Source: a virus. Taken from it: 35,960 nt of DNA. Below the pieces are notes generated by a model. That model did not search any database, had not been told where the DNA came from, and was given only the letters and a program-made list of their open reading frames with translations. Within the stretch, counting starts at the first letter, position 1, and the number at the start of each line of letters is the position of its first letter. Shown piece after piece: positions 1-35,960 of the stretch. Location of the stretch: the IMG/VR virus record IMGVR_UViG_3300009648_000002, positions 1-35,960 of that record. One strand, written 5' to 3'. Both the position numbers and the translations under genes were made by a program.

Positions 1-123
1 AAAGTATTACAACAAACCATACACAAAAAAGGTGCACATCAAGGCCCTTGTGAAGGAAACTATCAAATCAAAGACCCAAGATGGGGATCCTGTGAAAACA
101 CTCAAACTACTACTCGGCGACGA
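1..123. repeat. Terminal direct repeat, identical to 35838-35960 (circular genome overlap or terminal redundancy)
   Basis: The last 123 nt of the window match the first 123 nt base for base by visual alignment. Confidence 0.85.
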
Positions 124-1822
124 AAGAACAGATAAACTACTCAAATCTATTAAATCCTACAAACTAGACCCTGTCATCTCCATACCCTTCCATGGAGACA
201 GCGAAATCTATCTTGACGACAAGGACAACCGGGTGCTGCTCATTAAGACAATCAACATCAAGGGTAAATCAATCACAGAGGAAAGAATAGTCATAGACGC
301 CTACCCTGAAAGAATATCAATCTATGAATCCCCACTCCCAGGCGAAACACGACAAATCAAGATACAATGGATATCACCAACACAACAAAGATTCACGGAA
401 GGCCCAGCACCATTCGAATATCACATTGAAACACTCAAAGAATCAGGGCGTATATTCTATCACAACGTTTGCAGGGATGTCCTGGCCACCATAATAGGGT
501 GGATGGCCTACAAGGGAAACGCAGTGATTGAAAGGGGAGTTGACACACCCGGATTTTACTACAACGAGAACGAGGGAAAGATATACTCAGTCAAATATGA
601 TATCAAAGACGTCACCGCAGAGGATATCAAGGCATGTGCAGATCTACTCTCAAGTCTCTCAGAATACTTTGATGACCCTGTAAAGCTAGCAACAGTCCTG
701 AAATGGTGTATCATAGCACCATTCAATTATGTGCGTAAACAAGTCGGCGCCCCACTATTCCCCTACCTGTACCTCTATGGGGCTTCAGGTTCAGGGAAAA
801 CGAGCGTCGCGAGGATAGGTCAATACGTTTACACTTACCCCACAAGTGAAAACGATGTCGGAGGATCCAGCTTCGACACAGTAGCAAGGGTAGGTCATAG
901 GATCAGCCAATCAACATTCCCTATAATCATTAATGAACCAAAAGCCTGTTTTGATCGTCCCAGCACTGCTGAGATGATCAAGGTGATGGTCGAATCAACG
1001 ATAGGACGCGGGAGACATGAAGGTAAAGTATTCAAAAACATACCCAGCCTCTCACCAGTCATATTCACTTCAAACCATTACCTGCCACCAGATGACGCAT
1101 TACTGCGACGATTAGAGGTTATTAACTTCGTCCAGTCAGAGCGGAAGAATGATGAGGATTCGAAGGAGTTTAACGAGAAATTCAGGATTAACACGCCACA
1201 TAAGAGTCCGCTCATGGTTCTGAATAATCTTGGGGCATTCGCTGCCAGGGAGTTCATCGAGGACGTGGAGCTCTGCACAGATGATTGGAAGGCCGCTGCG
1301 AACAGTATCATCCTGAGATTCTATGCTGACGCTGGCCTGGAGCCTCCTGAGTGGTTGCTTGGCTGGTCAGAGACAGAGAGTCTTGAGGATGTGGACGATG
1401 ATATCAGGGAACAGGTGAGGATCTTCATTATGGAGCAGATCAACAATGAGGTCAGGAAGGCTAAATGGGTTGACAGTGAAGAATATAATGTTCAAAGGGA
1501 TCTTTCAGGGTCTTTCAGGGTCTCTTTCGCTGAGAAGGCTGAGAATGTCCTGTTGAATGGACTTATACCCTATATGGTCTTACATGAGGGGTATAAGGGG
1601 CGGCGTGTTGTATTTACAGGAGGTTTTAAGGATGCTGTGAACAGGGCGCTTGGTCTGTCGTTGACGTTGAAAGGCCTCTCTGACATCCTGGGTGAGGAAT
1701 GGATGTATGGTTCTGTCAAGGTGTCAGGGAGGGTGATGAAGTGTATGCATATCTGTTTTGATGAGTTTGTTAAGTTTGTTGATTTAAGTGAAATCATGTT
1801 AGAAAAAGAGGAGGATTTTTAG
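32..1822 (+). CDS. Replication protein with SF3-helicase-type NTPase domain; true start is at 35698 across the junction (~653 aa in full)
   Basis: Walker A LYLYGASGSGKTS, Walker B-like FPIIINEP and motif C IFTSNHY at SF3-like spacing; frame is open and continuous with the ORF starting at ATG 35698. Confidence 0.6.
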   Translation: MHIKALVKETIKSKTQDGDPVKTLKLLLGDERTDKLLKSIKSYKLDPVISIPFHGDSEIYLDDKDNRVLLIKTINIKGKSITEERIVIDAYPERISIYESPLPGETRQIKIQWISPTQQRFTEGPAPFEYHIETLKESGRIFYHNVCRDVLATIIGWMAYKGNAVIERGVDTPGFYYNENEGKIYSVKYDIKDVTAEDIKACADLLSSLSEYFDDPVKLATVLKWCIIAPFNYVRKQVGAPLFPYLYLYGASGSGKTSVARIGQYVYTYPTSENDVGGSSFDTVARVGHRISQSTFPIIINEPKACFDRPSTAEMIKVMVESTIGRGRHEGKVFKNIPSLSPVIFTSNHYLPPDDALLRRLEVINFVQSERKNDEDSKEFNEKFRINTPHKSPLMVLNNLGAFAAREFIEDVELCTDDWKAAANSIILRFYADAGLEPPEWLLGWSETESLEDVDDDIREQVRIFIMEQINNEVRKAKWVDSEEYNVQRDLSGSFRVSFAEKAENVLLNGLIPYMVLHEGYKGRRVVFTGGFKDAVNRALGLSLTLKGLSDILGEEWMYGSVKVSGRVMKCMHICFDEFVKFVDLSEIMLEKEEDF

Positions 1823-2159: not shown

Positions 2160-2453
2160 ATGAGAAATGATAAAAATGAGAGATTGTGGAACTTTAAGGA
2201 ATTAACCCACTACCTCGGCTACTCCATAAAAGTCAAACCCACCCTAGAAAAACTCGCTAAAAAGAAATACAGAGTCAGCCTAGCCGTCCTCGAAGAATTC
2301 CAGCCACACTTCACACCCACCACAGGTGGAATGAGCCAGACAACCATCGAAATAGGAATATACAGGACAAGGACAGAGTCAATCAAAAAGATCAAAGAGA
2401 TAATCGACACAATAACCATAGAAGACCTCCTCATAGGAGGGATGAAGCAGTGA
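2160..2453 (+). CDS. Hypothetical protein (97 aa)
   Basis: ORF with an RBS-like sequence; its stop overlaps the GTG start of the next gene. Confidence 0.45.
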   Translation: MRNDKNERLWNFKELTHYLGYSIKVKPTLEKLAKKKYRVSLAVLEEFQPHFTPTTGGMSQTTIEIGIYRTRTESIKKIKEIIDTITIEDLLIGGMKQ

Positions 2454-3214
2454 AAACCATAAGACTCACAACCGACAACCCAGCAGGCTTGCACAGCATA
2501 ACACACATGCTGACACAGATAAACGTCGACATTGCCACCATCCACGCCACACCAGAGGCCCTGACACTCGAAGGCATGGACGGGTCACACATCATCTACT
2601 ACAACATCAGGATCACACCAGACTTCTTCACAGACTACAAAGTCCCAGAGAACGAGGAACTATCAGTCCCAGTCGAAGAACTCAACAACATCCTCAAACT
2701 CACAGGGAGAAACAACACAATCACAATCACCAACCATACAGATGACGAGGAGAACACCACGTCCCTCATCGTCACCAGGTCCACAGAGAGAGACGAAACA
2801 AGGTTCACAATACTCTGCCCTGACATAGAATACGCCACCCCAACAGTCGACATGGGCACATTCGAATTAAATGCGACGATCACAGTCAACACAGACATGA
2901 TCACGTCATTCTTCAAAGACGCGGCCCTCACATCCTCTGACGCGATCGAGATCAAAGTCGATGAAGACTACCTGTACCTCATGACACCTGAGGATTACAA
3001 TGGATTCCATGTCATGTCCCGGCAGGGGCATGGTGAGAAAGTCTATGGGGAGTACTTAAGCCAATTCACGATAGAGAAACTCAAACCACTTATCCTCGAC
3101 GGATTTGAGACCGTTACAATCCACGTGGACAACGAGAAACCAATTAAATTAGAGTACTCAGACATTGGGGTTAGAGCGAACCTTCTCCTGGCCCCACGGA
3201 TCATAGGAGAATAA
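2450..3214 (+). CDS. pcn: DNA polymerase sliding clamp (PCNA) homolog
   Basis: 254 aa, typical PCNA length; C-terminal RANLLLAPRIIGE matches the archaeal PCNA C-terminus (compare P. furiosus ...RLTFLLAPRVEE); GTG start preceded by ggaggg. Confidence 0.7.
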   Translation: MKTIRLTTDNPAGLHSITHMLTQINVDIATIHATPEALTLEGMDGSHIIYYNIRITPDFFTDYKVPENEELSVPVEELNNILKLTGRNNTITITNHTDDEENTTSLIVTRSTERDETRFTILCPDIEYATPTVDMGTFELNATITVNTDMITSFFKDAALTSSDAIEIKVDEDYLYLMTPEDYNGFHVMSRQGHGEKVYGEYLSQFTIEKLKPLILDGFETVTIHVDNEKPIKLEYSDIGVRANLLLAPRIIGE

Positions 3215-4412: not shown

Positions 4413-4435
4413 TATAGACATATATAGCGAAGTAT
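4413..4435 (+). promoter_or_regulatory. Putative archaeal promoter (TATA-like element plus conserved 14-mer atatagcgaagtat)
   Basis: tatagacatatatagcgaagtat is 19/23 identical to the motif at 10741-10763; both lie 10-14 nt upstream of an operon start codon. Confidence 0.4.
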
Positions 4436-4448
4436 GGGGAGTGGATAT

Positions 4449-4772
4449 ATGATATACATAGTTACACGGCATCAGAGCACTGTTAACTGGATTAAGGCTA
4501 AACTGAATGGTAAAGGCCTTGACCGGGACGTCTTCGTCGCAGGGCATCTCAGTGATCAGATGATCCTGCAGATGAAGAAGGGTGATGCTGTCTACGGCAT
4601 CCTCCCCATCCACCTCATCAAGAGGTTGCTCCGTAAGGGTGTGGATTATTATCATATGGTCCTACCCGATGTCCCTGAGGAATTCAGGGGTAAGGAGTTG
4701 AGTCTTGAGCAGGTGAAAGCGTTTGGAGGTCAAATATGGAAAATTAGGGATATTGATTGTGTTGAAGTATAA
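4449..4772 (+). CDS. Small protein (107 aa), possible Csx16/VVA1548-like CRISPR-associated (ring-nuclease-like) protein; identity uncertain
   Basis: Start at ATG 4449, in frame with the track ORF from 4434; motifs IVTRH and GILPIHL recall Csx16-family proteins from memory only. Confidence 0.35.
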   Translation: MIYIVTRHQSTVNWIKAKLNGKGLDRDVFVAGHLSDQMILQMKKGDAVYGILPIHLIKRLLRKGVDYYHMVLPDVPEEFRGKELSLEQVKAFGGQIWKIRDIDCVEV

Positions 4773-4799
4773 AAAAAGAAAAAATAGGTTATAGGTGGC

Positions 4800-4985
4800 T
4801 CACCGATCCCGAGGAATAACCCTCCACCGGCCCAAGACGAGGGCCTTCTGGAGGGCCGTGAATTCCTCGGGAGTGATGTCATACTCCCTGAGGAACTCAT
4901 CAAGGGACATCTTGTCCACTATTTCGTGTCTGTTCAAGGTCATCCCAAGAATATGGGATAACCTGAACCTTTTCTCTGTACTCAT
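4800..4985 (-). CDS. Hypothetical small protein (61 aa)
   Basis: Minus-strand ORF preceded by gaggtgagatag-ATG, the RBS pattern used elsewhere in this genome. Confidence 0.45.
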   Translation of the reverse strand: MSTEKRFRLSHILGMTLNRHEIVDKMSLDEFLREYDITPEEFTALQKALVLGRWRVIPRDR

Positions 4986-5004
4986 CTATCTCACCTCAAT
5001 AAAA

Positions 5005-5148
5005 CTACACTATCCTCTTCACCCTGATCTCGAGGAGGACAGCTTCATCATCCTTCATGCCGAGTGCTTCCCTGACGGCTATGGGGATTGATATCCTCCC
5101 CTGCCTGTCAGGTTTGGCGGTGAAGGTGAACTCAGTCACCTTCACCAC
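5005..5148 (-). CDS. AbrB/SpoVT (MazE-like) swapped-hairpin domain protein, 47 aa; sub-threshold gene absent from the ORF track
   Basis: Minus-frame translation VVKVTEFTFTAKPDRQGRISIPIAVREALGMKDDEAVLLEIRVKRIV fits the AbrB/MazE core pattern (GRISIP...RE.LG...D); GTG start preceded by a GAGG-like RBS; overlaps the 3' end of the acidic-protein gene. Confidence 0.45.
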   Translation of the reverse strand: MVKVTEFTFTAKPDRQGRISIPIAVREALGMKDDEAVLLEIRVKRIV

Positions 5149-5389
5149 CCCTCTCGTCGATGTATTTCATGACGCGGTCGAAGAGTTCCTCTGCGGTCTG
5201 ACCATCCTCATAGCTGAGCCAGTGGATGGCTACTGAGTCTTCGTCGAGTTCCTCTGGGTAGTAGAAGTCCTCAACGAGTTTGAGGGCATCCTCAAAGGCC
5301 ATCTCAGCTTCCTCGTATTCTTCCAGGATTTCATCTTTGAGTTCATTGGCGAGCTGGATGATCTCCAGCTCCTCTTTTGTTCTTTTCAT
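5132..5389 (-). CDS. Highly acidic small protein (85 aa)
   Basis: About one third of residues are D/E; intact ORF in the minus-strand operon. Confidence 0.5.
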   Translation of the reverse strand: MKRTKEELEIIQLANELKDEILEEYEEAEMAFEDALKLVEDFYYPEELDEDSVAIHWLSYEDGQTAEELFDRVMKYIDERGGEGD

Positions 5390-5391
5390 GA

Positions 5392-5973
5392 CTATTCCTC
5401 CCTCCTTTCAAGTTCTTCTTCGAGGAGGTTAATCGCCTCCTCAACATATTCAGGGTCAGCCCATTTAAGCTGACCCCGTGCTTCGAGCCATCCGCATAGC
5501 TTCCTATACTTCCCCAGGGTGGTGAGCCCTGGGGCGTGGATTATTCTGTCGATTTCGTACCTGAGAACCCCACGATAAAAGTCCTCGATGAAGGCTATTA
5601 CGCCTTCATCAACCGGGCCCTCCACCCTGTACAGTGGCACAACCCTCCCAGTGGACTCGACGTAAGCGATAACTGTGAGGGTTTCATCCCTCCTGCGGTA
5701 CAGGTAGAGGCCCTCCCGGATCCATGTCCCGGTCCAGTGCCACCGTTCTACCTCCGCAGCCACAAGTATCCTACCCAGCCCCATGTAGGGCTGGTAAAAA
5801 TCAACATCATCCTCGGCGGCTATGCCTCCGACCCTTACGATCTCCCACCCCTTGGCGTTGGGGTGGGACTCCCCTGTTATGGCCTGGGCGAGTTTCCCGG
5901 GCCGTACGAGGAACTCGTCCCCATTTCTTTTGAGGAGGGCTCTGCGCACACCCTCCATGACGTCAGTTTTCAC
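5392..5973 (-). CDS. Hypothetical protein (193 aa)
   Basis: Minus-strand ORF in the GC-rich cassette, immediately upstream of the acidic-protein gene on the same strand. Confidence 0.5.
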   Translation of the reverse strand: MKTDVMEGVRRALLKRNGDEFLVRPGKLAQAITGESHPNAKGWEIVRVGGIAAEDDVDFYQPYMGLGRILVAAEVERWHWTGTWIREGLYLYRRRDETLTVIAYVESTGRVVPLYRVEGPVDEGVIAFIEDFYRGVLRYEIDRIIHAPGLTTLGKYRKLCGWLEARGQLKWADPEYVEEAINLLEEELERREE

Positions 5974-6438
5974 TTATTCCACCTCCTTGAGGTCTACGTT
6001 GTAGACCTCTCCAGCCCTGACCCTGTCGGCCAGGGCCTCTACCTGGGTCGCTGGGGCGGCGACCCAGAAGTGTTCCTCGTCGCAGAGCCCACAGGACCCT
6101 GCGACGAGGACGACCTGGACCCCTGCCTGGGCCAGGTCGAATGCTATGCGGTAGAGGTCTACCGCATGCTCCTCGAGGAGGTCTTCGTCCTCCTCCTGGA
6201 AGTCTGAGAGGTCCCAGAGGACCTCCCAGAACTCCTCCCCCTGTGGGTGGAGTATTTCTTCCCCACCCACAATGGAGATCTCTTCGAGGATGGGGAAGGG
6301 GTTCTCCCCATCCTGGTTGTATTCGCTGATGGCCCTTAGGGCCTCCACGGTGTCTCCCATGGAGGCCCTGAGAAGGGCCCCATGCGCGATCTCTACTTCC
6401 GCGCATATTTCCACAATTTCTTTTCGCATATTCACCAT
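5974..6438 (-). CDS. Hypothetical protein (154 aa), first gene of the minus-strand operon
   Basis: Minus-strand ORF directly upstream of the 193-aa gene; a TATA-like sequence lies upstream on the minus strand around 6516-6530. Confidence 0.5.
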   Translation of the reverse strand: MVNMRKEIVEICAEVEIAHGALLRASMGDTVEALRAISEYNQDGENPFPILEEISIVGGEEILHPQGEEFWEVLWDLSDFQEEDEDLLEEHAVDLYRIAFDLAQAGVQVVLVAGSCGLCDEEHFWVAAPATQVEALADRVRAGEVYNVDLKEVE

Positions 6439-6702
6439 CTACCTCACCTCATTTTCTTGTGGGGTTCAGGTGTTTTCACCTGTACCCCGTTGAGTGTATT
6501 CTGTTGGAGGGAGTATATAAATGTTTTCCTCCCTCCACCTATACACTCCATGATATACCTTATTCTGGATACTAATATATATACTTTTCTATTCCTCGTT
6601 TACTTTTAATAGCAGAACAAAAAGAGACTAAAACATGAAACTCAGCACAATGTACGCTAAAGCAACAAAAAAAGAACTAAGACCAGGAAAAGAACAAGGA
6701 AC
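6439..6702. promoter_or_regulatory. Divergent AT-rich intergenic region with TATA-like boxes for the leftward and rightward operons
   Basis: AT-rich with tatataaa and aatatatatac elements between oppositely oriented gene blocks. Confidence 0.4.
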
Positions 6703-7257
6703 GTGCTGCATATGCCACGAACAGACAAGGAAGGACACAAAAAAAGATTAGGTCAAACCTTCACAACAACCGACCAGACAAGCAGGGGAGACGTCATCTG
6801 CCCCTACTGCATGACACTCAAAAAAGACAGCAACAAACTCCGCAGGACAATGTGGATCCTCACAGAAGACAAATTCCACCCATTCAAACGCCCAGAACTC
6901 CCACAGATCCTCAAAGAACCACCAGACAAACCATACTACCTCTACCTGACAAGGACGTACAAGAAGATAGGCTGGATAATCATGGACGGCCTCCTGAACC
7001 AACCCAACCAGAAGATCATCAGATTAGCCTGTGACATGGAAACACATACACTAAGCCGTGAATTAGCAGTCCAGACCATAGAATGGATTAACGAGCTCAG
7101 AGAAAAATACAGAATCAGTAAGACGGAGATGAAGACTGGTGATGTGAACCCAGGGAAACTACAGGACATGACCGTCAGGGAAGCCAGGAACCTGAACATC
7201 ACCCTAAACAAATTGAAGGGTAACCCCACATGGGAGTTACTCATAGACATGGCATAA
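6703..7257 (+). CDS. Hypothetical protein (184 aa)
   Basis: ORF following the divergent promoter region. Confidence 0.45.
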   Translation: MLHMPRTDKEGHKKRLGQTFTTTDQTSRGDVICPYCMTLKKDSNKLRRTMWILTEDKFHPFKRPELPQILKEPPDKPYYLYLTRTYKKIGWIIMDGLLNQPNQKIIRLACDMETHTLSRELAVQTIEWINELREKYRISKTEMKTGDVNPGKLQDMTVREARNLNITLNKLKGNPTWELLIDMA

Positions 7258-7278
7258 TATTAGAGAGGTGAAAAAGGG

Positions 7279-7410
7279 ATGACCCAAAAGAAGAACCCGG
7301 CACCCATCCTCGTCAGGATAGGGGTATGGGTGACCATGATCTGCCTGGGAATAGTACTATTCTTCGTAGTCCTGGGCCTAATATCCGCAATACTTGGAGG
7401 AGGCGTATAG
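7279..7410 (+). CDS. Small hydrophobic (single transmembrane) protein, 43 aa; absent from the ORF track
   Basis: ATG preceded by gaggtgaaaaaggg; translation MTQKKNPAPILVRIGVWVTMICLGIVLFFVVLGLISAILGGGV; fills the gap between flanking genes exactly. Confidence 0.4.
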   Translation: MTQKKNPAPILVRIGVWVTMICLGIVLFFVVLGLISAILGGGV

Positions 7411-7411
7411 G

Positions 7412-7759
7412 ATGACTGATGAGAAGACTGAAAACGCCCTCGCAAAGTGCCTTGCGATGACGTATAGGAACATTGAATGGAAGAAAGTTGGTGTGAAATC
7501 AGCGTACACATACTTCACAGACCGTGTGCGCGCAGCAAGCCGCATGAGCACCATCACATCCTTCCTAGAAGAACTAAACAGGATGTGCGGTGTCAGCTTC
7601 ACCCAGCACAGCCTCAAAGACATAAACACACTCAAAGAGAACGAAGACGAAGCCCTGAACCTACTCAGACATGAGACAAACTACGCAGTCCTACTCGCCC
7701 TGGAAGTTGTTGAGAAACTCAAAATGAAGAAAGCAGAGGATGAAGGTGATGAAGTATGA
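7412..7759 (+). CDS. Small alpha-helical protein (115 aa) immediately upstream of the RAMP gene
   Basis: ATG 7412 preceded by ggaggagg; stop overlaps the RAMP start (ATGA). Confidence 0.45.
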   Translation: MTDEKTENALAKCLAMTYRNIEWKKVGVKSAYTYFTDRVRAASRMSTITSFLEELNRMCGVSFTQHSLKDINTLKENEDEALNLLRHETNYAVLLALEVVEKLKMKKAEDEGDEV

Positions 7760-8601
7760 GGACTGTTAAGTACCCTGGAGTGTTAACTGCCCGGACACCT
7801 ATCCATCACGGCGGCCCTGAAGTCTATGGGACGATAAAACCCATACTCACACTCCCCACACTCATAGAGGATGAGAAGGGGATGAGGGTTGAGGACGTCC
7901 CCTACATCCATGGGAATGCGATCAGGGGGTACCTCCGCCGCCTGGTCATGCAGGACTTCCTGGATCAACTCGATTATGACCTCAAATCAGCGAAGATCTA
8001 CCATTTTCTCTTCACAGGGGGCCTCCTGGAGGCTAACACAAAATCCTCTGGTATGATTGACGTGAAACTCAAATCAGGGATCCGCAAGTACATCCCACCA
8101 GCAAGTCTCTGGGGTTCTGCCCTGGGCAATCAGATGATCCAGGGCAAATTGAAGGTGGACCTTGCAGAACCGATCTGCAAGGAACTTTACTGGCAGCAGA
8201 AACAGTACTGTGACATCGATGGCCCTTCAAGTTATTCCCTGAAGGCGAGGGACTTCGGGACCCGCCTTGATAGTCTCAGGGAGTACAAGGAGGACAGAGA
8301 GGATGGAGAGCAGGCGACGCAGATGAAGTACGAGTTCGAAGTCATCGTGAAGGGTGCGAAGTTCTATCATGAATTCACACTCACAGACACTGACCCTGTT
8401 GAGGAATCATGTTTCATCCGGGCATTGAACCTGTGGAGCGAACGCCCCTACCTCGGGGGGAAGAGCGGTTCAGGGTACGGGAAACTGGATATCCGCTATG
8501 ACTATGACCCTGATGCTGAGGCAACATACCTCTCGTATGTCGAGGAGAAGGCTGACCTGATCAGAGAGTTTCTTGATGAATTACAGGCAAACTGGCGATG
8601 A
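7756..8601 (+). CDS. RAMP-superfamily protein, Cas7-like (type III Csm3/Cmr4/Cmr6-like)
   Basis: Three RAMP hallmarks in canonical order: N-terminal TPIHHGG, central VPYIHGNAIRGYLRR (compare PYIPGSSLKG.LR) and a C-terminal glycine-rich loop YLGGKSGSGYGKL; 281 aa. Confidence 0.55.
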   Translation: MRTVKYPGVLTARTPIHHGGPEVYGTIKPILTLPTLIEDEKGMRVEDVPYIHGNAIRGYLRRLVMQDFLDQLDYDLKSAKIYHFLFTGGLLEANTKSSGMIDVKLKSGIRKYIPPASLWGSALGNQMIQGKLKVDLAEPICKELYWQQKQYCDIDGPSSYSLKARDFGTRLDSLREYKEDREDGEQATQMKYEFEVIVKGAKFYHEFTLTDTDPVEESCFIRALNLWSERPYLGGKSGSGYGKLDIRYDYDPDAEATYLSYVEEKADLIREFLDELQANWR

Positions 8602-9251
8602 TCATGTCTCTTGCTGCCAGGATCCAGGATAAAATCAGCGCCTACCTGAGACGATCTAAACACAGAGTAAAAAAACCACTCCACAAGGCCGACTCGAAGA
8701 CAATACAGGAAGTCTTTGACAGAATCCCTTTCTACACCCTTGCAAGGCACTGGGATGCCTATCACAACCCAGACAGATACACTACAAAAACCCTCTCCCG
8801 GCAGGTGAAGGTACCATACCACACACTCTATAATTGGATCACACGCAAATGCTCCACGAGGGTGGGCTGGTTCTGGAAGGGCTGGATCGTCATAGGGAAC
8901 ACAAAGGACCCCAGGAAACCAGCAATATTCAAGACAAAGACAACAGAAGAGATACTTGAAGATCTGCACACCAACTACATTGAATTACAACCACTCACAA
9001 GCAGGAAGGACTTTGAGGGATGCATAAGGAATTACCTGGAATGTAATGGGCCATCCACAGCCTTAGAACTCTACGAGGAGGTCGTGCTAAACAATTATAA
9101 CGCTAAATTCTCAAAGTCAAGGTACATGAAACGCAACGCATTCACCGCAATCATACGTGGCGTGGATGGCGTGGTGAAGGTAGGGACCAAAAAGGCGAAG
9201 GGCTATAACATGCCAGTCTATGCAGTTGATGAAGGATGTGTAGCAAAATGA
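8598..9251 (+). CDS. Hypothetical protein (217 aa), translationally coupled to the RAMP gene
   Basis: Start overlaps the RAMP stop; weak glycine-containing C-terminal segment; otherwise unrecognised. Confidence 0.45.
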   Translation: MIMSLAARIQDKISAYLRRSKHRVKKPLHKADSKTIQEVFDRIPFYTLARHWDAYHNPDRYTTKTLSRQVKVPYHTLYNWITRKCSTRVGWFWKGWIVIGNTKDPRKPAIFKTKTTEEILEDLHTNYIELQPLTSRKDFEGCIRNYLECNGPSTALELYEEVVLNNYNAKFSKSRYMKRNAFTAIIRGVDGVVKVGTKKAKGYNMPVYAVDEGCVAK

Positions 9252-9658: not shown

Positions 9659-9727
9659 TGGGTGTGTCCCTTGACTGTGTTACGTTATATAGTGAGAGGG
9701 GACTATTCAAGTCCCCTGGTGAAGGTT

Positions 9728-9877
9728 ATGTCTCCTTGTCCACAATGCGGGTCCCAGAGGAGGGATTATGTCCCTGAGGATGGGTACATGGTCTGCAAGG
9801 ACTGTGGCCTTGTCCTCGCCGCTGTGTATCCATACACTGCTGGGTTGAGAATGGATCTACCTGAGGGCCTCCTCTGA
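9728..9877 (+). CDS. Stand-alone TFIIB/TFB-type zinc-ribbon mini-protein (49 aa)
   Basis: MSPCPQCGSQRRDYVPEDGYMVCKDCGLVL matches the TFB N-terminal zinc-ribbon pattern CPxCG-x15-VCxxCGLV; ATG 9728 is in frame within track ORF 9662-9877. Confidence 0.5.
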   Translation: MSPCPQCGSQRRDYVPEDGYMVCKDCGLVLAAVYPYTAGLRMDLPEGLL

Positions 9878-9894
9878 TTCTGTTGGGGTGAGAT

Positions 9895-10173
9895 ATGGTG
9901 AGTGATGATATCCTGGAACATTTAGATGCCTTCAACTCCGCACTCATCGATTTTATGGATCGTTTTGAGTGGGTTGAGCGTGACGCTGTGGAGGTCTGCG
10001 ACATACTCAACTTTGGGGCCCTCATTGTCGGAGTGGCCGTCTGTTTCATCCCTGATGAGTGGGGTGGTGTCTGCATCTACATTGATGAGGATGCTGTTGA
10101 GTACCTCCCACTGATACTCGAGGTCTTCATGAAGAACTATGTGAACTGGGGTCTCAGGGAGCCGCTGATCTAA
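9895..10173 (+). CDS. Hypothetical protein (92 aa)
   Basis: ORF preceded by ggggtgagatatg RBS/start context. Confidence 0.4.
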   Translation: MVSDDILEHLDAFNSALIDFMDRFEWVERDAVEVCDILNFGALIVGVAVCFIPDEWGGVCIYIDEDAVEYLPLILEVFMKNYVNWGLREPLI

Positions 10174-10769: not shown

Positions 10770-11294
10770 GTGATGATGAAGGGTGAGGAAGAGAAGCACA
10801 GGGAAGCATACGACCATTACCTCGCCCACATTGAGGCAGGATACACAAAGACGGCGAGCGTCAAAGAAACAGCCAGAAGGATAGGGGTCTCCGAGGCAAC
10901 AGTCTGGAACTGGAAGAGACGCTTCCACTGGGATGAGAAACAGGCGATAGACAGCTACGAGATCAAAGAGACGTTCAAGGAAAGGAATCATGAGATCATC
11001 ATAGACTTCAAGACCAAATACCTCGCATTCCTCAATGACCTCATCGACCAGGCGATAGAGGAATTCCGTGAGGGCCGGGGCGTCGTCATGATACGTGATG
11101 TTGGGGACCTGGAACGAGTGATTAAAGTTGCCCTCCTCCTCCAGGGCGAGGCAACAAGCAGGACTGAGAGCAGCGTCCTGCAAGTGAACCGTGAAAAGAT
11201 AGAAGATTATGAGGAATACTTCAGAGAATTAGAGGAGGAATTTGGGGCGGGGGACGCTGAGGATGAGAATCAAGGTGCGGAGGGGATTTACTGA
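10770..11294 (+). CDS. terS: Putative terminase small subunit (HTH DNA-binding)
   Basis: HTH-like RIGVSEATVWNWKRR; position immediately upstream of and overlapping the large terminase gene. Confidence 0.5.
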   Translation: MMMKGEEEKHREAYDHYLAHIEAGYTKTASVKETARRIGVSEATVWNWKRRFHWDEKQAIDSYEIKETFKERNHEIIIDFKTKYLAFLNDLIDQAIEEFREGRGVVMIRDVGDLERVIKVALLLQGEATSRTESSVLQVNREKIEDYEEYFRELEEEFGAGDAEDENQGAEGIY

Positions 11295-12618
11295 TGCGGA
11301 GAAAGACTTCCTCACTGAGACAGTCCTTAAAAACCCTTACATTCCACATAAACCATTCCTTAAGCAGGCGATATTCCTCACCAGACTCGACAGGGAACTG
11401 CTCTATGGTGGTCAGGCGGGGGGTGGGAAATCTGACGCTCTCCTCATGGCAGCCCTCCAATATGTCATGTACCCGGATTATCATGCACTCTTACTTAGGA
11501 GGACTTACAAGGAATTAGCCCTTCCAGGTGCCCTTATGGATCGTGCGGATGAATGGTTAACACCTACAGATGCTGAGTGGGTCGCGGAGAACAAGACATG
11601 GGAATTCCCATCAGGAGCAACCCTCACCTTCGGTTACCTTGAGCATGAGCGGGATAAACACCGATACCAGTCCTCAGAGTTCCAGTTCATAGGCTTTGAT
11701 GAGCTCACAGAGTTCCAAGAGTCACAGTACACATTCCTATTCAGTAGGAACAGGAAGACAGAGGACAACCCCGTCCCCTTGAGGACAAGGGCTGCGACGA
11801 ACCCTGGAGGCGTGGGCCATGAATGGGTGAAAAGACGATTCATTGAAGGCCCAGCACCATTCCTTCCATCCAGTTACACTGAAAACCCTTACCTTGACGC
11901 ATCATATGAGGAAAGCCTTGATCTCCTCGACCCGATCACCCGACGCCAACTTAAATATGGTGATTGGTCCGCGACGATAGAGGGGAGGATCTTCACTGAG
12001 GATATCCTTGATTACTATGATGAGCCGCCGACACCAGAACAGACACGTCTTGCAGTCAGGTACTGGGACCTTGCAGCCACACCTGACAGGAATGATGACT
12101 CAATAAGTGGCGGTGCGGATTGGACGGTCGGGGCCCTCCTACTCCTTGACGACTCCGGAGGCCTCTACCTTGAGGATATCATCCGATTCAGGCTTTCACC
12201 CGCGGAGGCTGAGGATATGATCATTCAAACGATCCGTAACGACTTTCAAGTTTATAGGGAGAAATACATGGCGCGGGCTGAACTGGAGGGAGGAGCCTCT
12301 GCAAGGTATGTGATGGAATCCCTCCGCAGACGCCTGGCTGGGGTGAACTTTGACGGATCCCCTGTCCAGGGTAAAAGTAAACTAGATAGGGCCAGAGCGT
12401 TGATCCCAGCATTCAGGACATCCCAGTTAAGGCTTAAGAGGGATGCTCCATGGCTCTACACATTCACGAGGGAACTCCTCGCATTCCCATCAACTGGTGT
12501 TCATGATGACCAGGTCGACGCCCTCAGCGGGGCCTACCTCCAGGTCGCTGACTTAACATCAGGGGATCCGTATGGGGCTTCAGGTAGGCGGTATAAAGGT
12601 TATGGGGTGACATATTGA
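11242..12618 (+). CDS. terL: Terminase large subunit
   Basis: Walker A-like LYGGQAGGGKSDALL near the N-terminus; C-terminal nuclease-type motif HDDQVDAL; followed by portal; start may be ATG 11263. Confidence 0.7.
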   Translation: MGRGTLRMRIKVRRGFTDAEKDFLTETVLKNPYIPHKPFLKQAIFLTRLDRELLYGGQAGGGKSDALLMAALQYVMYPDYHALLLRRTYKELALPGALMDRADEWLTPTDAEWVAENKTWEFPSGATLTFGYLEHERDKHRYQSSEFQFIGFDELTEFQESQYTFLFSRNRKTEDNPVPLRTRAATNPGGVGHEWVKRRFIEGPAPFLPSSYTENPYLDASYEESLDLLDPITRRQLKYGDWSATIEGRIFTEDILDYYDEPPTPEQTRLAVRYWDLAATPDRNDDSISGGADWTVGALLLLDDSGGLYLEDIIRFRLSPAEAEDMIIQTIRNDFQVYREKYMARAELEGGASARYVMESLRRRLAGVNFDGSPVQGKSKLDRARALIPAFRTSQLRLKRDAPWLYTFTRELLAFPSTGVHDDQVDALSGAYLQVADLTSGDPYGASGRRYKGYGVTY

Positions 12619-27903: not shown

Positions 27904-29721
27904 ATGCGGTTCAAGGTCGGCCCGCTCCTCATACTGAACCCTGATGAAACCCCTCTCGTCTACCTTGACAGTGACGCCGTCCAGGTCACAGAGAAAGTCA
28001 CATTCAACTCTTTCAGGGAGCTACGGGTCAACCATCCTCTCATCCACGATGATGGGAGGGATTACAGCAGGTACATCCGCCCCGGGATGAAGATGTTCTG
28101 GTATACCACCACTGAGGGCGACTCCTGCCTCTACGTCATCGACGGGGCTGTTAAGTACGAGTATGACGCTAACACCGTGGATTTCACGGCCCATGAGGCC
28201 GCCGCCGAGTTGCAGGACCTCCCACCAGTCTGGGTGGATCCTGTGGTCGCTGACAACTTCCAGGACGCCCGGATAGGCCAGCAGTGGACGACCACGACGA
28301 ACGGGGGGCAGATCACTGAGGGCAAGGGGTACCTGCAGCTCTACGCCTCGAAGGGTACACAGATCGTCTGGGGCGGCGCCTCCACGTATAGGTCGCCCTG
28401 CATCGCCCACACACCCCTACTTGAGGGGAATAGCTTCACATTGATCACCAGGATCATCCCCATGCCCCCCTTGAAGAATGAAGCTCCATTCGGCCTCGCC
28501 ATCACCAACAACAACTTCGAGGCATTCTATAGGATCGGCAGGCATTGGAGCAGTGACGGGAAGCACTATGTGAGGACAGACTACCGTAACCCCGGCGGTA
28601 CCGAGACCCAAGTCCAGTCTGATGAGTATAAGGACCTCTCTGTGATGGCGGCGACATGGTTCATGCTCGAAGTGGACGCTGATGGGAAAGCCACAACCTC
28701 ATGGAGCCCTGATGGTGTCTCATGGACAAGTCACACGACAACACAGTTAACCTGGACTCCTACCCGGGCGGGGGTCTTCATCAGGAACTGGAGCCCTAAC
28801 TACAACCCCGTGAAGGCCAGGGCAACGACTTTCAAGTACATCCCCTGGAGGGGGCGACTCGTCGATGTGACTGACGAGTACCTCACCAACCTGACCGGGG
28901 GCAGGTTCACCGCCACAGGGACGCCCAGCGGCCTCCAGGCACGTCTCGGCGGCCTCCAGGACCCCTACAGTATCATCATGAAGGTCTGCGAGGATAACGG
29001 CCTCCAGGCCTCTTTCAGGTACAGGTATGACGCGGATGATGGTGGGATAAAGCGTGAACTCCTCCTCACCTCGGTGGATGATACTGTGAGGGGTGTGCTC
29101 CGCCTCGGTGAGGACATCGCCGGCCTGGAGGTGACCATCGATGAGTCCAGTGTTGCATCCGCCGCCGCGCCCAGGTTAACGGCCCTGAATGATGCCGAGA
29201 AACTGATCCCTGTCCTGCAGGAGTACCGTGAACTCCAGGTCACCAGGGGTGCGGGTATACCCTCGCAGGTCTACACGGACTCCCAGAACCGGCAGGTCTA
29301 CGGGCCTAATGTCTCCGCGCCCTATGGGAAGACAGGGGGTGTGTACGTTGTCGTTGCAGAGGACTCTGACGCCGAATACAGGAGGATAATAACCCCTGGG
29401 GTCCCAGATGAGGGCCGGGTCGTCTACGTGGACGTGTCCCAGGCAGATCACCCTTTGAACCTGTACTGGGACTTGGCAGGGAAGCTGGACGAGGCAAGGA
29501 CACGGAAGATCACTCTCACCTTTGATTACATGGAGAAAAGCCCTGATGCGGCGGAGTTCAGGTACAGGGTAGGGGACCTCCTCAGGATCATCCTCCCAGG
29601 TGAGGATGAGGCGGCGGAGTTCAGGGTCCAAACGACGGAGAAGAACCCCTACGAGCCCGCTGCCTTGAAGATGGAGCTCGGCGAGGAACCCATCAAATTC
29701 ACAAGGATAGGAGGTAGATAA
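27904..29721 (+). CDS. Tail/baseplate protein (605 aa)
   Basis: Position in the tail module. Confidence 0.5.
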   Translation: MRFKVGPLLILNPDETPLVYLDSDAVQVTEKVTFNSFRELRVNHPLIHDDGRDYSRYIRPGMKMFWYTTTEGDSCLYVIDGAVKYEYDANTVDFTAHEAAAELQDLPPVWVDPVVADNFQDARIGQQWTTTTNGGQITEGKGYLQLYASKGTQIVWGGASTYRSPCIAHTPLLEGNSFTLITRIIPMPPLKNEAPFGLAITNNNFEAFYRIGRHWSSDGKHYVRTDYRNPGGTETQVQSDEYKDLSVMAATWFMLEVDADGKATTSWSPDGVSWTSHTTTQLTWTPTRAGVFIRNWSPNYNPVKARATTFKYIPWRGRLVDVTDEYLTNLTGGRFTATGTPSGLQARLGGLQDPYSIIMKVCEDNGLQASFRYRYDADDGGIKRELLLTSVDDTVRGVLRLGEDIAGLEVTIDESSVASAAAPRLTALNDAEKLIPVLQEYRELQVTRGAGIPSQVYTDSQNRQVYGPNVSAPYGKTGGVYVVVAEDSDAEYRRIITPGVPDEGRVVYVDVSQADHPLNLYWDLAGKLDEARTRKITLTFDYMEKSPDAAEFRYRVGDLLRIILPGEDEAAEFRVQTTEKNPYEPAALKMELGEEPIKFTRIGGR

Positions 29722-34023: not shown

Positions 34024-34797
34024 TCATTCTATCATATTCAAGAGTTTCTCACGGTATTCAGCACTCAGATTTCTCTTCATGATCACCTCCCTTATATTCT
34101 CACGAGTGATGGGAAGATCTTGCTTCTCAAGTATCTCGATCACTCCAAGAAGGGCGGGAGTCTTCTTCAACTCCTCTATCTCCTCATCAGAGAGTTCATC
34201 CTCAACGATCTCTGGAACGACCTGTGCGTCTACAGCGTCAGGCTCTCTCTTTGTCTTCGCGTTACGCTTCGTCTCAGAGTTACGCGTATTCCTCAGGATG
34301 TCAGTCTCCTCTGCAGGTGTAGGTGCATACCCTGCAAGGCTAACGATCCACCCTAGAGGCATCCTGAGGGCCTTGCTCACAGCCCTCGTCTCAGCCATTG
34401 ATTGAATAGCATATTCATCCCGCCCATACCAGTTCTTTTCGTAGCTACTGCAGATCATCTCCGCAGCACCTATCACTGTCCCATCAGAGCGTCTTGCAGT
34501 GGCCCTGGCCCTGTATATTATTTCGGGCTTTTTACGGCCACTATGAGGCTCCCTCTCAAGCCTCTCGGTCTCCTCAATGACTGAATAGACCCCGACAAGG
34601 AATCCAAGGGTTGTCCATCCCTCTACAGTGACATATTTTTTCCCTTTTATGTCCACGTAGAGGTTCGCGCCCTCTATTATATCTGTGAGTGTCCTGGATA
34701 TCTTCGTCGCGGTGTTAACCATCATCTCAGGTGATTCGAAGGCGAACAGGTTGGTGGTTCTTGGTTTCTCTGGCAGGTTGGGTTGGTTTGTCATCAT
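34024..34797 (-). CDS. Hypothetical protein (257 aa)
   Basis: Minus-strand ORF with RBS ggagggaataa-ATG; no catalytic motif recognised. Confidence 0.5.
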   Translation of the reverse strand: MMTNQPNLPEKPRTTNLFAFESPEMMVNTATKISRTLTDIIEGANLYVDIKGKKYVTVEGWTTLGFLVGVYSVIEETERLEREPHSGRKKPEIIYRARATARRSDGTVIGAAEMICSSYEKNWYGRDEYAIQSMAETRAVSKALRMPLGWIVSLAGYAPTPAEETDILRNTRNSETKRNAKTKREPDAVDAQVVPEIVEDELSDEEIEELKKTPALLGVIEILEKQDLPITRENIREVIMKRNLSAEYREKLLNMIE

Positions 34798-35013
34798 TTA
34801 TTCCTCCCTTATCATTGAAGGAGTCTTAGCATTTTTATCCTGCAGTCGGAGGATGTGAGAGATGATCCTGTGCGGGTCCATTTCAACCCACTCAACCCAT
34901 TCTCTTTCACCATCATAAATCCCTTCATGGAATTTGGCTACAATCCGGCCATCCTGAACTTTGAGTGAGACCTTGTCTCCCCATTCTAAACCGAATTTGA
35001 TAGTTGCCATCAT
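34798..35013 (-). CDS. Hypothetical small protein (71 aa)
   Basis: Minus-strand ORF whose start overlaps the upstream small gene stop (ATGA). Confidence 0.45.
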   Translation of the reverse strand: MMATIKFGLEWGDKVSLKVQDGRIVAKFHEGIYDGEREWVEWVEMDPHRIISHILRLQDKNAKTPSMIREE

Positions 35014-35150
35014 GGGACCACCCCTGATGTGCCCTCAATCTGGATGATGAAGAGGGCTGCCATCATCATCACAACTAGTAGTATTGTGATGATGTTAGTT
35101 GCTTGGACGTCACATTTGCACATGTAGGCTGTGTTTTTCTCCAATCTCAT
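35010..35150 (-). CDS. Small membrane protein (46 aa); absent from the ORF track
   Basis: ATG at 35150 preceded by gtgaggtgagatag; translation MRLEKNTAYMCKCDVQATNIITILLVVMMMAALFIIQIEGTSGVVP has a hydrophobic core. Confidence 0.35.
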   Translation of the reverse strand: MRLEKNTAYMCKCDVQATNIITILLVVMMMAALFIIQIEGTSGVVP

Positions 35151-35297
35151 CTATCTCACCTCACATATAGCCCATCTCTTCGTTTTGGGCTCTGTTAATA
35201 AGATTGGGGTAAACATATATAAACATAGGGAATATTGCACACATTTATATGCATCACTGTCATAGTCGATACTAGAACTGTTCAGGAGGTGAATTTA
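35151..35297. promoter_or_regulatory. Divergent promoter region with TATA-like boxes
   Basis: catatataaac and catttatatgc elements between the minus-strand operon start and the plus-strand RHH gene. Confidence 0.35.
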
Positions 35298-35501
35298 GTG
35301 AGAAAAGGGAATATGATCCGAATAACGTCGAGTGTCAGTGTCCTGCCAAGCCAATACTCAAAACTAAAAGCAGTTTTAGAGTCGGCGCAGAATGACTATG
35401 GCGTCACGATATCTATCCAGGAACTCCTCAGGGATGGCCTGGATAGCATCCTCAACGACATGGATGTAGAGAAATATCTAAAGAATAAGGGATTGATATG
35501 A
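35298..35501 (+). CDS. Putative ribbon-helix-helix (CopG/Arc-like) DNA-binding protein
   Basis: GTG 35298 six nt after aggaggtga; N-terminal beta-strand-like RITSSVSVLP followed by helices; the track start at 35235 would lie inside the promoter. Confidence 0.4.
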   Translation: MRKGNMIRITSSVSVLPSQYSKLKAVLESAQNDYGVTISIQELLRDGLDSILNDMDVEKYLKNKGLI

Positions 35502-35697
35502 CGGAGGAACATGAAATATGAATGAAGAAGAATTAGTATGGGGTGAGATAGATGAGTAGGATTACAGAAAAAACTGAGTTCCCACCCACCCTCAGTACTA
35601 CATTAGTTTTACGTCGTATAAATGTTTTCATCACCCCAACAAGTCATGTAAACAAAAAACAATGTAATGTACATGATAAAAGTTGGGGTGTAAATAT

Positions 35698-35960
35698 ATG
35701 AACTTCAAAGAAGCCCTGAAGGACAACTACTTCTCATCAGGACTAGACACAGAGGACTTCATCATCGCAGTCACACAACTCGCGCGCGACCATAACATCC
35801 CAGAAACAGACATAACCAATGCCTTAATACCCATAAAAAAGTATTACAACAAACCATACACAAAAAAGGTGCACATCAAGGCCCTTGTGAAGGAAACTAT
35901 CAAATCAAAGACCCAAGATGGGGATCCTGTGAAAACACTCAAACTACTACTCGGCGACGA
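35698..35960 (+). CDS. 5' part of the Rep gene, continuing in frame across the repeat into 1-1822
   Basis: ATG 35698 preceded by ggggtg; open frame reads MNFKEALKDNYF... through the terminal repeat with no stop. Confidence 0.5.
   Translation, partial: MNFKEALKDNYFSSGLDTEDFIIAVTQLARDHNIPETDITNALIPIKKYYNKPYTKKVHIKALVKETIKSKTQDGDPVKTLKLLLGD

Follow-up and report, generated by a model that had tools for sequence, protein, structure and literature searches.

A five-gene minus-strand cassette with an AbrB-like gene in a Methanothermobacter-type virus: a candidate autoregulated accessory operon

The closest described counterparts of the locus analysed here are the acr-aca operons of phages, which combine anti-CRISPR (Acr) genes with a regulator (Aca, anti-CRISPR-associated) of the helix-turn-helix (HTH) or winged helix-turn-helix (wHTH) type (Aca1-13, Aca8), and the early genes of Sulfolobales viruses. 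Anti-defence genes of these archaeal viruses share a strong promoter made up of a B recognition element (BRE) and a TATA box, in some cases with inverted repeats that were taken as repressor sites (PMC11065993). The subject of this report is a cassette of five minus-strand genes (positions 4800-6438) in IMG/VR record IMGVR_UViG_3300009648_000002, positions 1 to 35,960, a viral sequence that was analysed at its full length of 35,960 nucleotides (nt) and is called the window below. The cassette is read here, at a probability of roughly 0.5, as a lineage-specific, self-contained and autoregulated accessory operon that carries orphan proteins as its payload, possibly for anti-defence.

The window bears an exact 123-bp terminal repeat (1-123 = 35838-35960) and is therefore a complete genome of ~35.8 kb, circular or circularly permuted; an identical contig is found in the public metagenome-assembled genome GCA_029778645.1 (L001). 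Its large terminase (11242-12618) shares 49% identity with the enzymes of psiM100 and psiM2 and 45% with the PhiF3 enzyme, all from viruses of Methanothermobacter, and by sequence the virus is classified as a tailed, Methanothermobacter-type virus that is Methanobavirales-like. The terminase, ribosome-binding sites of the GGTGA type and a guanine + cytosine (GC) content of roughly 50% point to a Methanothermobacter-like member of the Methanobacteriales as the host.

In architecture, the cassette corresponds to an acr-aca operon: small payload genes are combined with a small putative DNA-binding regulator, a strong promoter and an inverted-repeat putative operator. Like acr-aca operons and Sulfolobales early genes, it places small, fast-evolving, often acidic orphans ahead of a conserved small candidate DNA-binding protein, has a strong core promoter bracketed by inverted repeats, and lies in a variable region beside a counter-defence gene (Csx16). 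Unlike acr-aca operons, its candidate regulator is of the AbrB-type swapped-hairpin class instead of HTH or wHTH, two of its payload proteins are fairly large [193 amino acids (aa) and 204-245 aa], and no payload protein is homologous to a known Acr; its predicted host is a methanogen, not a member of the Sulfolobales or a bacterium.

The five genes (Table 1) were also predicted by an independent gene caller on the identical public contig, and each is under purifying selection, with ratios of nonsynonymous to synonymous substitution (dN/dS) of 0.13-0.55 in comparisons with three relatives (L002, L015, and L021); they are therefore real genes. Genes 1-4 are joined successively by a TAAGTG junction, a 2-nt gap and an 8-17-nt overlap, such that the stop codon of gene 3 overlaps the start of the AbrB-like gene, and gene 5 follows after a 19-nt gap with its own GAGGTGA ribosome-binding site; as judged from this spacing, the five genes are packed as one operon. 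The long open reading frames (ORFs) that overlap them, 5536-6207 (+) and 5963-6406 (in another minus-strand frame), would yield Pro/Arg/Gly-rich off-frame products, consistent with the view, taken in an earlier sequence-only reading of this DNA (the original prediction), that such ORFs are spurious. That reading also held that the cassette runs opposite to nearly all other genes: the five ORFs do share the minus strand, but they are not the only genes on it, as a second minus-strand module is present near the right end of the genome.

Gene 4 is the AbrB-type gene that the original prediction had recognised at 5005-5148 outside the listed ORFs. A hidden Markov model search bore this out with family matches that fall below the thresholds of the curated models and are consistent across four independent resources. 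The 47-aa ORF matched Pfam PF04014 (MazE_antitoxin) with an E-value of 4.9e-4 (20.4 bits, below the gathering cut-off of 24.7), TIGR01439 (AbrB) with an E-value of 1.1e-4 (21.8 bits, below the cut-off of 28.3) and an antitoxin PHROG; gene callers favour a start at 5139, which gives 44 aa. When three orthologues were combined into a profile, it matched the Protein Data Bank (PDB) entry 2GLW (E 2.9e-9), the single-chain swapped-hairpin barrel of P. horikoshii, and the AbrB N-domain structures 1Z0R, 2K1N, and 1YFB (E 0.013-0.017), and the orthologue in L021 carries a weak precomputed PF04014 match. The alignment with AbrB/SpoVT/MazE domains (B. subtilis AbrB 1Z0R/1YFB; PhS018 2GLW) runs across the loop-hinge motif GRISIP...ALG, with invariant G17, I21, P22, and A28-L29-G30 and R or K at position 18. 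The length of 44-47 aa fits the family and corresponds to one half-barrel, implying that the protein would act as a homodimer. In contrast to the described members, the protein is virus-encoded, scores below the cut-offs and ends directly after the predicted DNA-binding domain, with no C-terminal extension for oligomerisation or toxin binding.

These last features bear on the idea of a type II toxin-antitoxin or abortive-infection system, in which the AbrB-like protein of the cassette would be a MazE/VapB-type antitoxin, and to which the top Pfam and PHROG labels, both antitoxin families, lend some appeal. In Pfam, PADLOC, PHROGs and NCBIfam, no neighbouring gene matched a model for a toxin (MazF, PIN and Doc included) or for defence, and the 61-aa protein encoded downstream has no toxin features. 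Since the protein is a bare half-barrel without a C-terminal tail and no neighbour is toxin-like, a role as a transcription factor fits better, and a toxin-antitoxin module is highly improbable. The AbrB-like protein is thus likely, on its sequence, to be a transcription regulator of the cassette. The 61-aa product of gene 5, which is 75-95% identical across relatives (dN/dS 0.13-0.27) and matched no family, may be a second regulator. A further candidate relative of the 61-aa protein, L025, was rejected as a motif match inside a 3107-aa protein.

The predicted promoter lies upstream of gene 1, where the minus-strand sequence GGAAAACATTTATATA (6512-6527) comprises a purine-rich BRE and a TATA box and includes one of just three perfect TTTATATA boxes in 36 kb. 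BRE and TATA are bracketed by a perfect 9-bp inverted repeat, TGGAGGGAG / CTCCCTCCA (6505-6513 / 6529-6537), and then by an outer 8-bp inverted repeat (6492-6499 / 6541-6548); the inner pair occurs once in the genome, against 0.01 occurrences expected by chance. The promoter region is conserved in L002, L015, and L022, and the entire 196-bp intergenic region between the cassette and csf1 is nearly invariant in these three relatives despite the divergence of the flanking genes. A scan for bacterial promoters and terminators was set aside as uninformative for an archaeal virus. The leader contains a hairpin (-20.5 kcal/mol, z -3.7), located downstream of the predicted start site and ahead of the Shine-Dalgarno sequence, whose stem is kept with different bases in L015 and is absent in L021, and the oligo-T tract behind gene 5 is a probable archaeal terminator.

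In the proposed mechanism, the strong consensus BRE/TATA promoter would drive the five tightly packed genes, and the AbrB-type protein would dimerise into a swapped-hairpin barrel. The dimer, possibly together with the 61-aa protein, would bind the inverted repeat around the BRE/TATA and so block TBP/TFB, which would shut off or tune its own operon; such binding may also affect the back-to-back csf1 promoter ~55 bp away. The acidic and orphan proteins encoded upstream of the regulator would form the payload, most plausibly directed at factors of the host or of competitors, for anti-defence or takeover. The L021 genome keeps this TATA between the arms of another repeat, GGTGCGGTAC..GTACTGCACC, and its AbrB-like protein carries the substitutions Q16R, R18K, and S20Q, which flank the conserved Gly in the PDRQGRISIP segment; this one genome, set against the others, is suggestive of co-variation between regulator and operator.

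The larger cassette proteins are orphans confined to this virus lineage, to judge from the searches made. In a word-indexed search of 5.8 billion clustered sequences, the 85-, 193-, and 154-aa proteins each found 2-5 clusters, none from outside this lineage, and full HMMER profile searches with the larger proteins against 1.84 billion representatives added one match, which was compositional. No homologues of these proteins were found in scans of GTDB genomes or in GenBank phages; JGI metagenomes yielded one near-identical locus and IMG/VR one close relative. Neither psiM100 nor PhiF3 has an analogous cassette, all their genes upstream of the terminase being on one strand. The product of gene 1 (the 154/229-aa family) matched no family in Pfam, PHROG, PADLOC or NCBIfam. 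In its homologues of 204-245 aa the N-terminal domain is acidic and the C-terminal domain varies, the latter occurring in relatives as two alleles that are ~46% identical; the window copy has lost 75 codons of the C-terminal domain in frame between CCTCAAGG microhomologies (5985-5992, minus strand; compared with P0006/L022), and dN/dS is 0.43-0.46. The 193-aa product of gene 2 is 50% identical to its L021 orthologue. The two structure models obtained were poor, and neither matched an Ocr/ArdA-like fold.

The 85-aa product of gene 3 is the most acidic protein of the genome, with 29 Asp and Glu among its 85 residues and an isoelectric point (pI) of 4.05; the runner-up has 23% Asp + Glu. The measured acidic fraction of 34% agrees with the one third given in the original prediction, from which a DNA mimic of the Ocr/ArdA type had been proposed. 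Like Ocr, ArdA and AcrIIA4, the protein is small, one third acidic, close to pI 4 and predicted to be helical: its AlphaFold model, of low confidence [predicted local distance difference test (pLDDT) 66.5, predicted template-modelling score (pTM) 0.33], has three helices (5-43, 50-58, and 66-80) and is not disordered. Unlike these mimics, it shows no sequence or fold similarity to any of them within the reach of that low-confidence model, and its gene is dispensable within the cassette, being absent from L021 where the other cassette genes remain. The protein has homologues in two clusters among the 5.8 billion sequences. It found no match at E<=5 among PDB sequences, all deposited mimics included, no family in Pfam, PHROG (anti-restriction and Acr families included) or NCBIfam, and no Ocr/ArdA-like fold in a Foldseek search with the low-confidence model, in which the top PDB match (E 3.2) was unrelated. 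PADLOC returned weak matches to DarG, over the C-terminal portion of the model (E 3.7e-4, 18 bits; the sole library match of the protein below E 0.001), to Cas11b (E 0.018) and to Cas10 (E 0.054). The DarG and Cas11b matches were not reproduced against PDB sequences and are probably compositional.

A dedicated anti-CRISPR/anti-restriction operon, in which the 85-aa protein, and perhaps the product of gene 1, would be a DNA mimic and the AbrB-like protein an Aca-type repressor, would suit the size and charge of the 85-aa protein, which are within the range of known mimics, the position of its gene directly upstream of, and overlapping, that of a small putative DNA-binding protein, and the nearby Csx16 ring nuclease and type IV-B module; the weak DarG match, not reproduced against PDB and perhaps compositional, can be added. 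The null results with solved structures, folds and anti-restriction/Acr families and the absence of the gene from L021 with the rest of the operon kept make such an operon unlikely, and the model of the 85-aa protein is too poor for its charge pattern to be judged. The proposal of an Ocr/ArdA-type mimic has accordingly found no support.

All four known relatives have the cassette at this locus, which is variable. Relatives carry ~1.75 kb more between Csx16 and gene 5 (4767-4819 in the window, 5082-6835 in L004, and 4006-5714 in L015), which encodes strongly acidic proteins of 144/138 aa and 362/359 aa, paralogous to each other, and a 45-aa acidic ORF located downstream of the 61-aa gene; the 144-, 362-, and 45-aa genes are all absent from the window. 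No other paralogy was found among the acidic proteins. Together with the presence or absence of the 85-aa gene and the two alleles and the deletion of gene 1, these differences are typical of accessory or arms-race loci. Insertions and deletions extend across 4.4-9.3 kb, which therefore forms an indel hotspot, the pattern expected where functions are accessory and dispensable.

On one side of the cassette, convergent with it, lies a stand-alone Csx16 gene. Members of the Csx16 family have been shown to be ring nucleases specific for cyclic tetra-adenylate (cA4) and were found in just two phage genomes (PMC12409355); the viral Csx16 is plausibly an anti-type-III-CRISPR enzyme, given its family. 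On the other side of the cassette is a decayed type IV-B CRISPR-Cas module (Csf1-Cas11-Cas7). Its csf1 has a 1-nt frameshift near 6670, and a ~2.5-kb deletion at 8643-8646 has removed csf3, an N6/N4 methyltransferase gene and a cysH-like gene and fused an N-terminal stub of Csf3 to a 271-aa gene, giving a 217-aa ORF (8598-9251). The complete locus is found in L022 (5740-9804), where csf1, a 43-aa ORF, cas11, csf2, csf3, the N6/N4 methyltransferase gene, the cysH-like PAPS reductase gene and ORFs of 61 and 271 aa follow one another. In L021 (1140-1660), the whole module is deleted, and the csf1 promoter and the first ~25 csf1 codons remain beside the cassette. As reconstructed from these sequences, the module is being lost repeatedly and independently in the lineage.

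Among archaeal viruses, virus-borne type IV-B systems were previously reported only from viruses of Bathyarchaeia, the Fuxiviridae (PMC10848311). The relatives of the present virus share with them csf1-cas11-csf2-csf3, a cysH-like PAPS reductase gene and the lack of adaptation genes. They differ in the host lineage, which is Methanothermobacter-like and not Bathyarchaeia, in the N6/N4 DNA methyltransferase gene between csf3 and cysH in L022, and in that no mini-array was found in the window and the module is decaying in the window and deleted in L021.

The proximity of this module raises the possibility that the cassette is its accessory or regulatory partner, co-regulated with it from the shared 196-bp intergenic region. 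The csf1 TATA lies back to back with that of the cassette at a distance of ~55 bp, the two forming an inverted repeat of each other; the intergenic region hardly varies among relatives with both units; and the cassette adjoins csf1 in four genome variants (the window, L002, L015, and L022). The L021 genome, which retains the cassette without the module, largely refutes this reading, and the window itself keeps the cassette despite its frameshifted csf1 and the lost csf3, methyltransferase and cysH genes. Conversely, nine other viral contigs with type IV-B systems encode none of the five cassette proteins and have no comparable divergent cassette, and no cassette protein scored below E 0.01 against the PADLOC Cas models (best, Cas11b at 0.018 and Cas10 at 0.054). 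A cassette without the module in L021 and modules without the cassette in nine contigs therefore mean that the cassette is no type IV-B accessory. A partnership of the two is very unlikely, and it is, like the toxin-antitoxin reading, largely contradicted by the data.

Another explanation makes the cassette a regulatory switch or immunity module, comparable to a lysogeny-maintenance operon and transcribed against the lytic genes, in which the small putative DNA binders would repress lytic or early promoters and the 85-aa protein could be an AbbA-like anti-repressor that titrates the AbrB-like protein made along with it. In B. subtilis, AbrB is counteracted by the antirepressor AbbA, a small acidic protein that itself mimics DNA. 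The orientation of the cassette against almost all other genes, its divergent promoter and its two small conserved candidate DNA binders suit such a switch. So does the acidic gene's overlap with the AbrB-like gene's start, a hint that the two proteins are made in a coupled, stoichiometric manner. Against it, neither an integrase nor a known repressor family was found in the precomputed Pfam matches (14-35 kb of the contig) or in library scans, which covered part of the ORFs, and archaeal integrases can be divergent; the inverted repeat occurs once in the genome, so that no regulon is visible; the two larger orphans are left without a role; and the divergent-promoter region at 35.2-35.7 kb, with small genes of its own, is an equally good candidate. 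A switch function for the cassette is consequently possible but doubtful.

The region just mentioned was noted in its own right. The second minus-strand module (34024-35150) comprises three genes for proteins of 46 aa (hydrophobic, probably membrane-spanning), 71 aa, and 257 aa and sits behind another perfect TTTATATA box (35216-35223). An element at 35615-35638 is 86% identical to the BRE/TATA region of the cassette and faces a divergent 88-aa gene. The second module and its divergent promoters (34024-35640) may be the real regulatory switch of the virus.

Several points weigh against an autoregulated accessory operon with an anti-defence payload, the reading preferred here. No payload protein matches a known anti-defence, Acr or DNA-mimic family in Pfam, PHROG, PADLOC, NCBIfam or PDB, and both structure models are of low confidence, so that evidence from folds is missing, not negative. 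A strict palindrome is often dispensable for binding by AbrB-type proteins, and the 61-aa protein or a host factor could bind the repeat instead. The co-variation of repeat and regulator comes from a single divergent genome, L021. Proteins of the Methanothermobacter type are generally acidic, so that charge alone is weak evidence. The promoter parallel is drawn from Sulfolobales viruses, not from viruses of methanogens (PMC11065993). The preferred reading owes its anti-defence flavour to four circumstantial points: the neighbouring genes, a variable region, three acidic products and the promoter architecture. The original description of the cassette as counter-defence-like is plausible in view of the Csx16 and type IV-B flanks, the indel hotspot and the promoter, none of which it had drawn on.

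A bolder form of the same idea would make this the first acr-aca-like anti-defence operon of a methanogen virus, with a new, AbrB-fold class of Aca that occludes an operator-bracketed BRE/TATA. Its acidic inhibitors, unrelated to one another, would number as many as three (the 85-aa protein, the acidic gene 1 domain and the 45-aa protein of relatives); they would target Methanothermobacter type I-B or type III CRISPR-Cas, or restriction, and the operon would act alongside Csx16. In a sub-variant, the 85-aa protein may mimic DNA as AbbA does and titrate the AbrB-like repressor with which it is co-translated. This extension is tentative and, on balance, unlikely.

Composition was the other argument of the original prediction, which took the cassette to be GC-rich and horizontally acquired. 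The cassette has 55.3% GC, compared with 50.4% for the genome and 45.8% and 48.1% for its flanks. The excess is confined to the two promoter-proximal genes (5392-6438; 57.9%, with 60-nt lines at 0.55-0.70); the stretch 4800-5400 has 50.6%, and the three small genes are at ~50%. Equal-sized windows at least as GC-rich make up 13% of the total, all of them within the tail genes (20.5-31.7 kb, 54.5%), and first codon positions (GC1 0.64-0.72) account for some of the excess, their high values reflecting proteins rich in Glu, Asp, Gly, Ala, and Val. In codon usage, the cassette lies at the top of the range of distances from the rest of the genome, equalled by the tail gene 27904-29721, and single genes such as those for PCNA and Csf1 deviate more; this test gave foreign origin no support, the cassette being no clear outlier. 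The high GC content thus holds for 5392-6438 but not for the small genes. Since the GC excess is partial and codon usage not outlying, there is no clear sign of foreign origin; both deviations are mild and limited to two genes, and the presence of the cassette at one locus in all four known relatives likewise lends horizontal acquisition no support.

Some further features of the genome were recorded. The virus encodes a PCNA-like sliding clamp (2450-3214, +; PF00705 among the precomputed matches), and a large protein at 32-1822 (+), which is 596 aa long as a window ORF and 653 aa as called on the public copy of the contig, may be a replication protein; it had no family match. A 116-aa minus-strand ORF (9726-10076; pI 10.9) that is 98% conserved in a relative overlaps plus-strand genes of 91 and 72 aa preferred by the gene caller and is probably spurious. 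Rfam and tRNA scans returned no RNA genes; no CRISPR array or mini-array was found in a search confined to the window, nor did a Methanothermobacter CRISPR repeat match there.

Table 1. Predicted genes and sequence elements of the cassette and its immediate neighbours (positions in the window).
Feature	Position	Strand	Remarks
Cassette promoter/putative operator	6492-6548	-	Repeats found in the sequence; promoter role predicted from the archaeal consensus
5' leader hairpin, GGGGUACAGGUG-AAAA-CACCUGAACCCC	6461-6488	-	Between predicted start site and Shine-Dalgarno
Gene 1, 154 aa, acidic orphan, net charge -28	5974-6438	-	Truncated allele
Gene 2, 193 aa, orphan	5392-5973	-	Conserved more widely than the other cassette proteins
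Gene 3, 85 aa, super-acidic orphan, predicted helical	5132-5389	-	34% Asp + Glu, net charge -21; optional
Gene 4, 44-47 aa, AbrB/SpoVT/MazE-type	5005-5148	-	Likely transcription regulator
Gene 5, 61 aa, small basic conserved protein, no known fold	4800-4985	-	Candidate second regulator
14-nt oligo-T tract, TTTTTTCTTTTTTT	4771-4784	-	Directly after gene 5; abuts convergent Csx16 stop codon
Csx16, stand-alone, viral	4434-4772	+	Pfam Cas_VVA1548 4e-29; PADLOC Csx16 5e-34
Type IV-B CRISPR-Cas module (Csf1-Cas11-Cas7), decayed	6635-9251	+	PADLOC

Orphan early operons with a small regulator of the AbrB or ribbon-helix-helix (RHH) type are common in archaeal viruses, and if its genes are merely orphan early genes, the cassette is ordinary; novelty is limited to the specific orphan proteins assembled here in a virus of methanogens. 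The main interest lies mostly in the Csx16/type IV-B neighbourhood and in the operator-regulator pair, not in the GC or DNA-mimic arguments. If the cassette is indeed an autoregulated accessory operon, it would offer a compact example of transcription control in a methanogen virus, in which a minimal repressor of the AbrB type would work through an operator placed around the TATA box. It would also supply a short list of candidate anti-defence proteins for Methanothermobacter, for which we know of no Acr. Methanothermobacter is now genetically tractable (PMC8609365). The surroundings may outweigh the cassette itself: one small virus lineage combines a Csx16 cA4 ring nuclease with a type IV-B module, and the available genomes capture that module at successive stages of decay.

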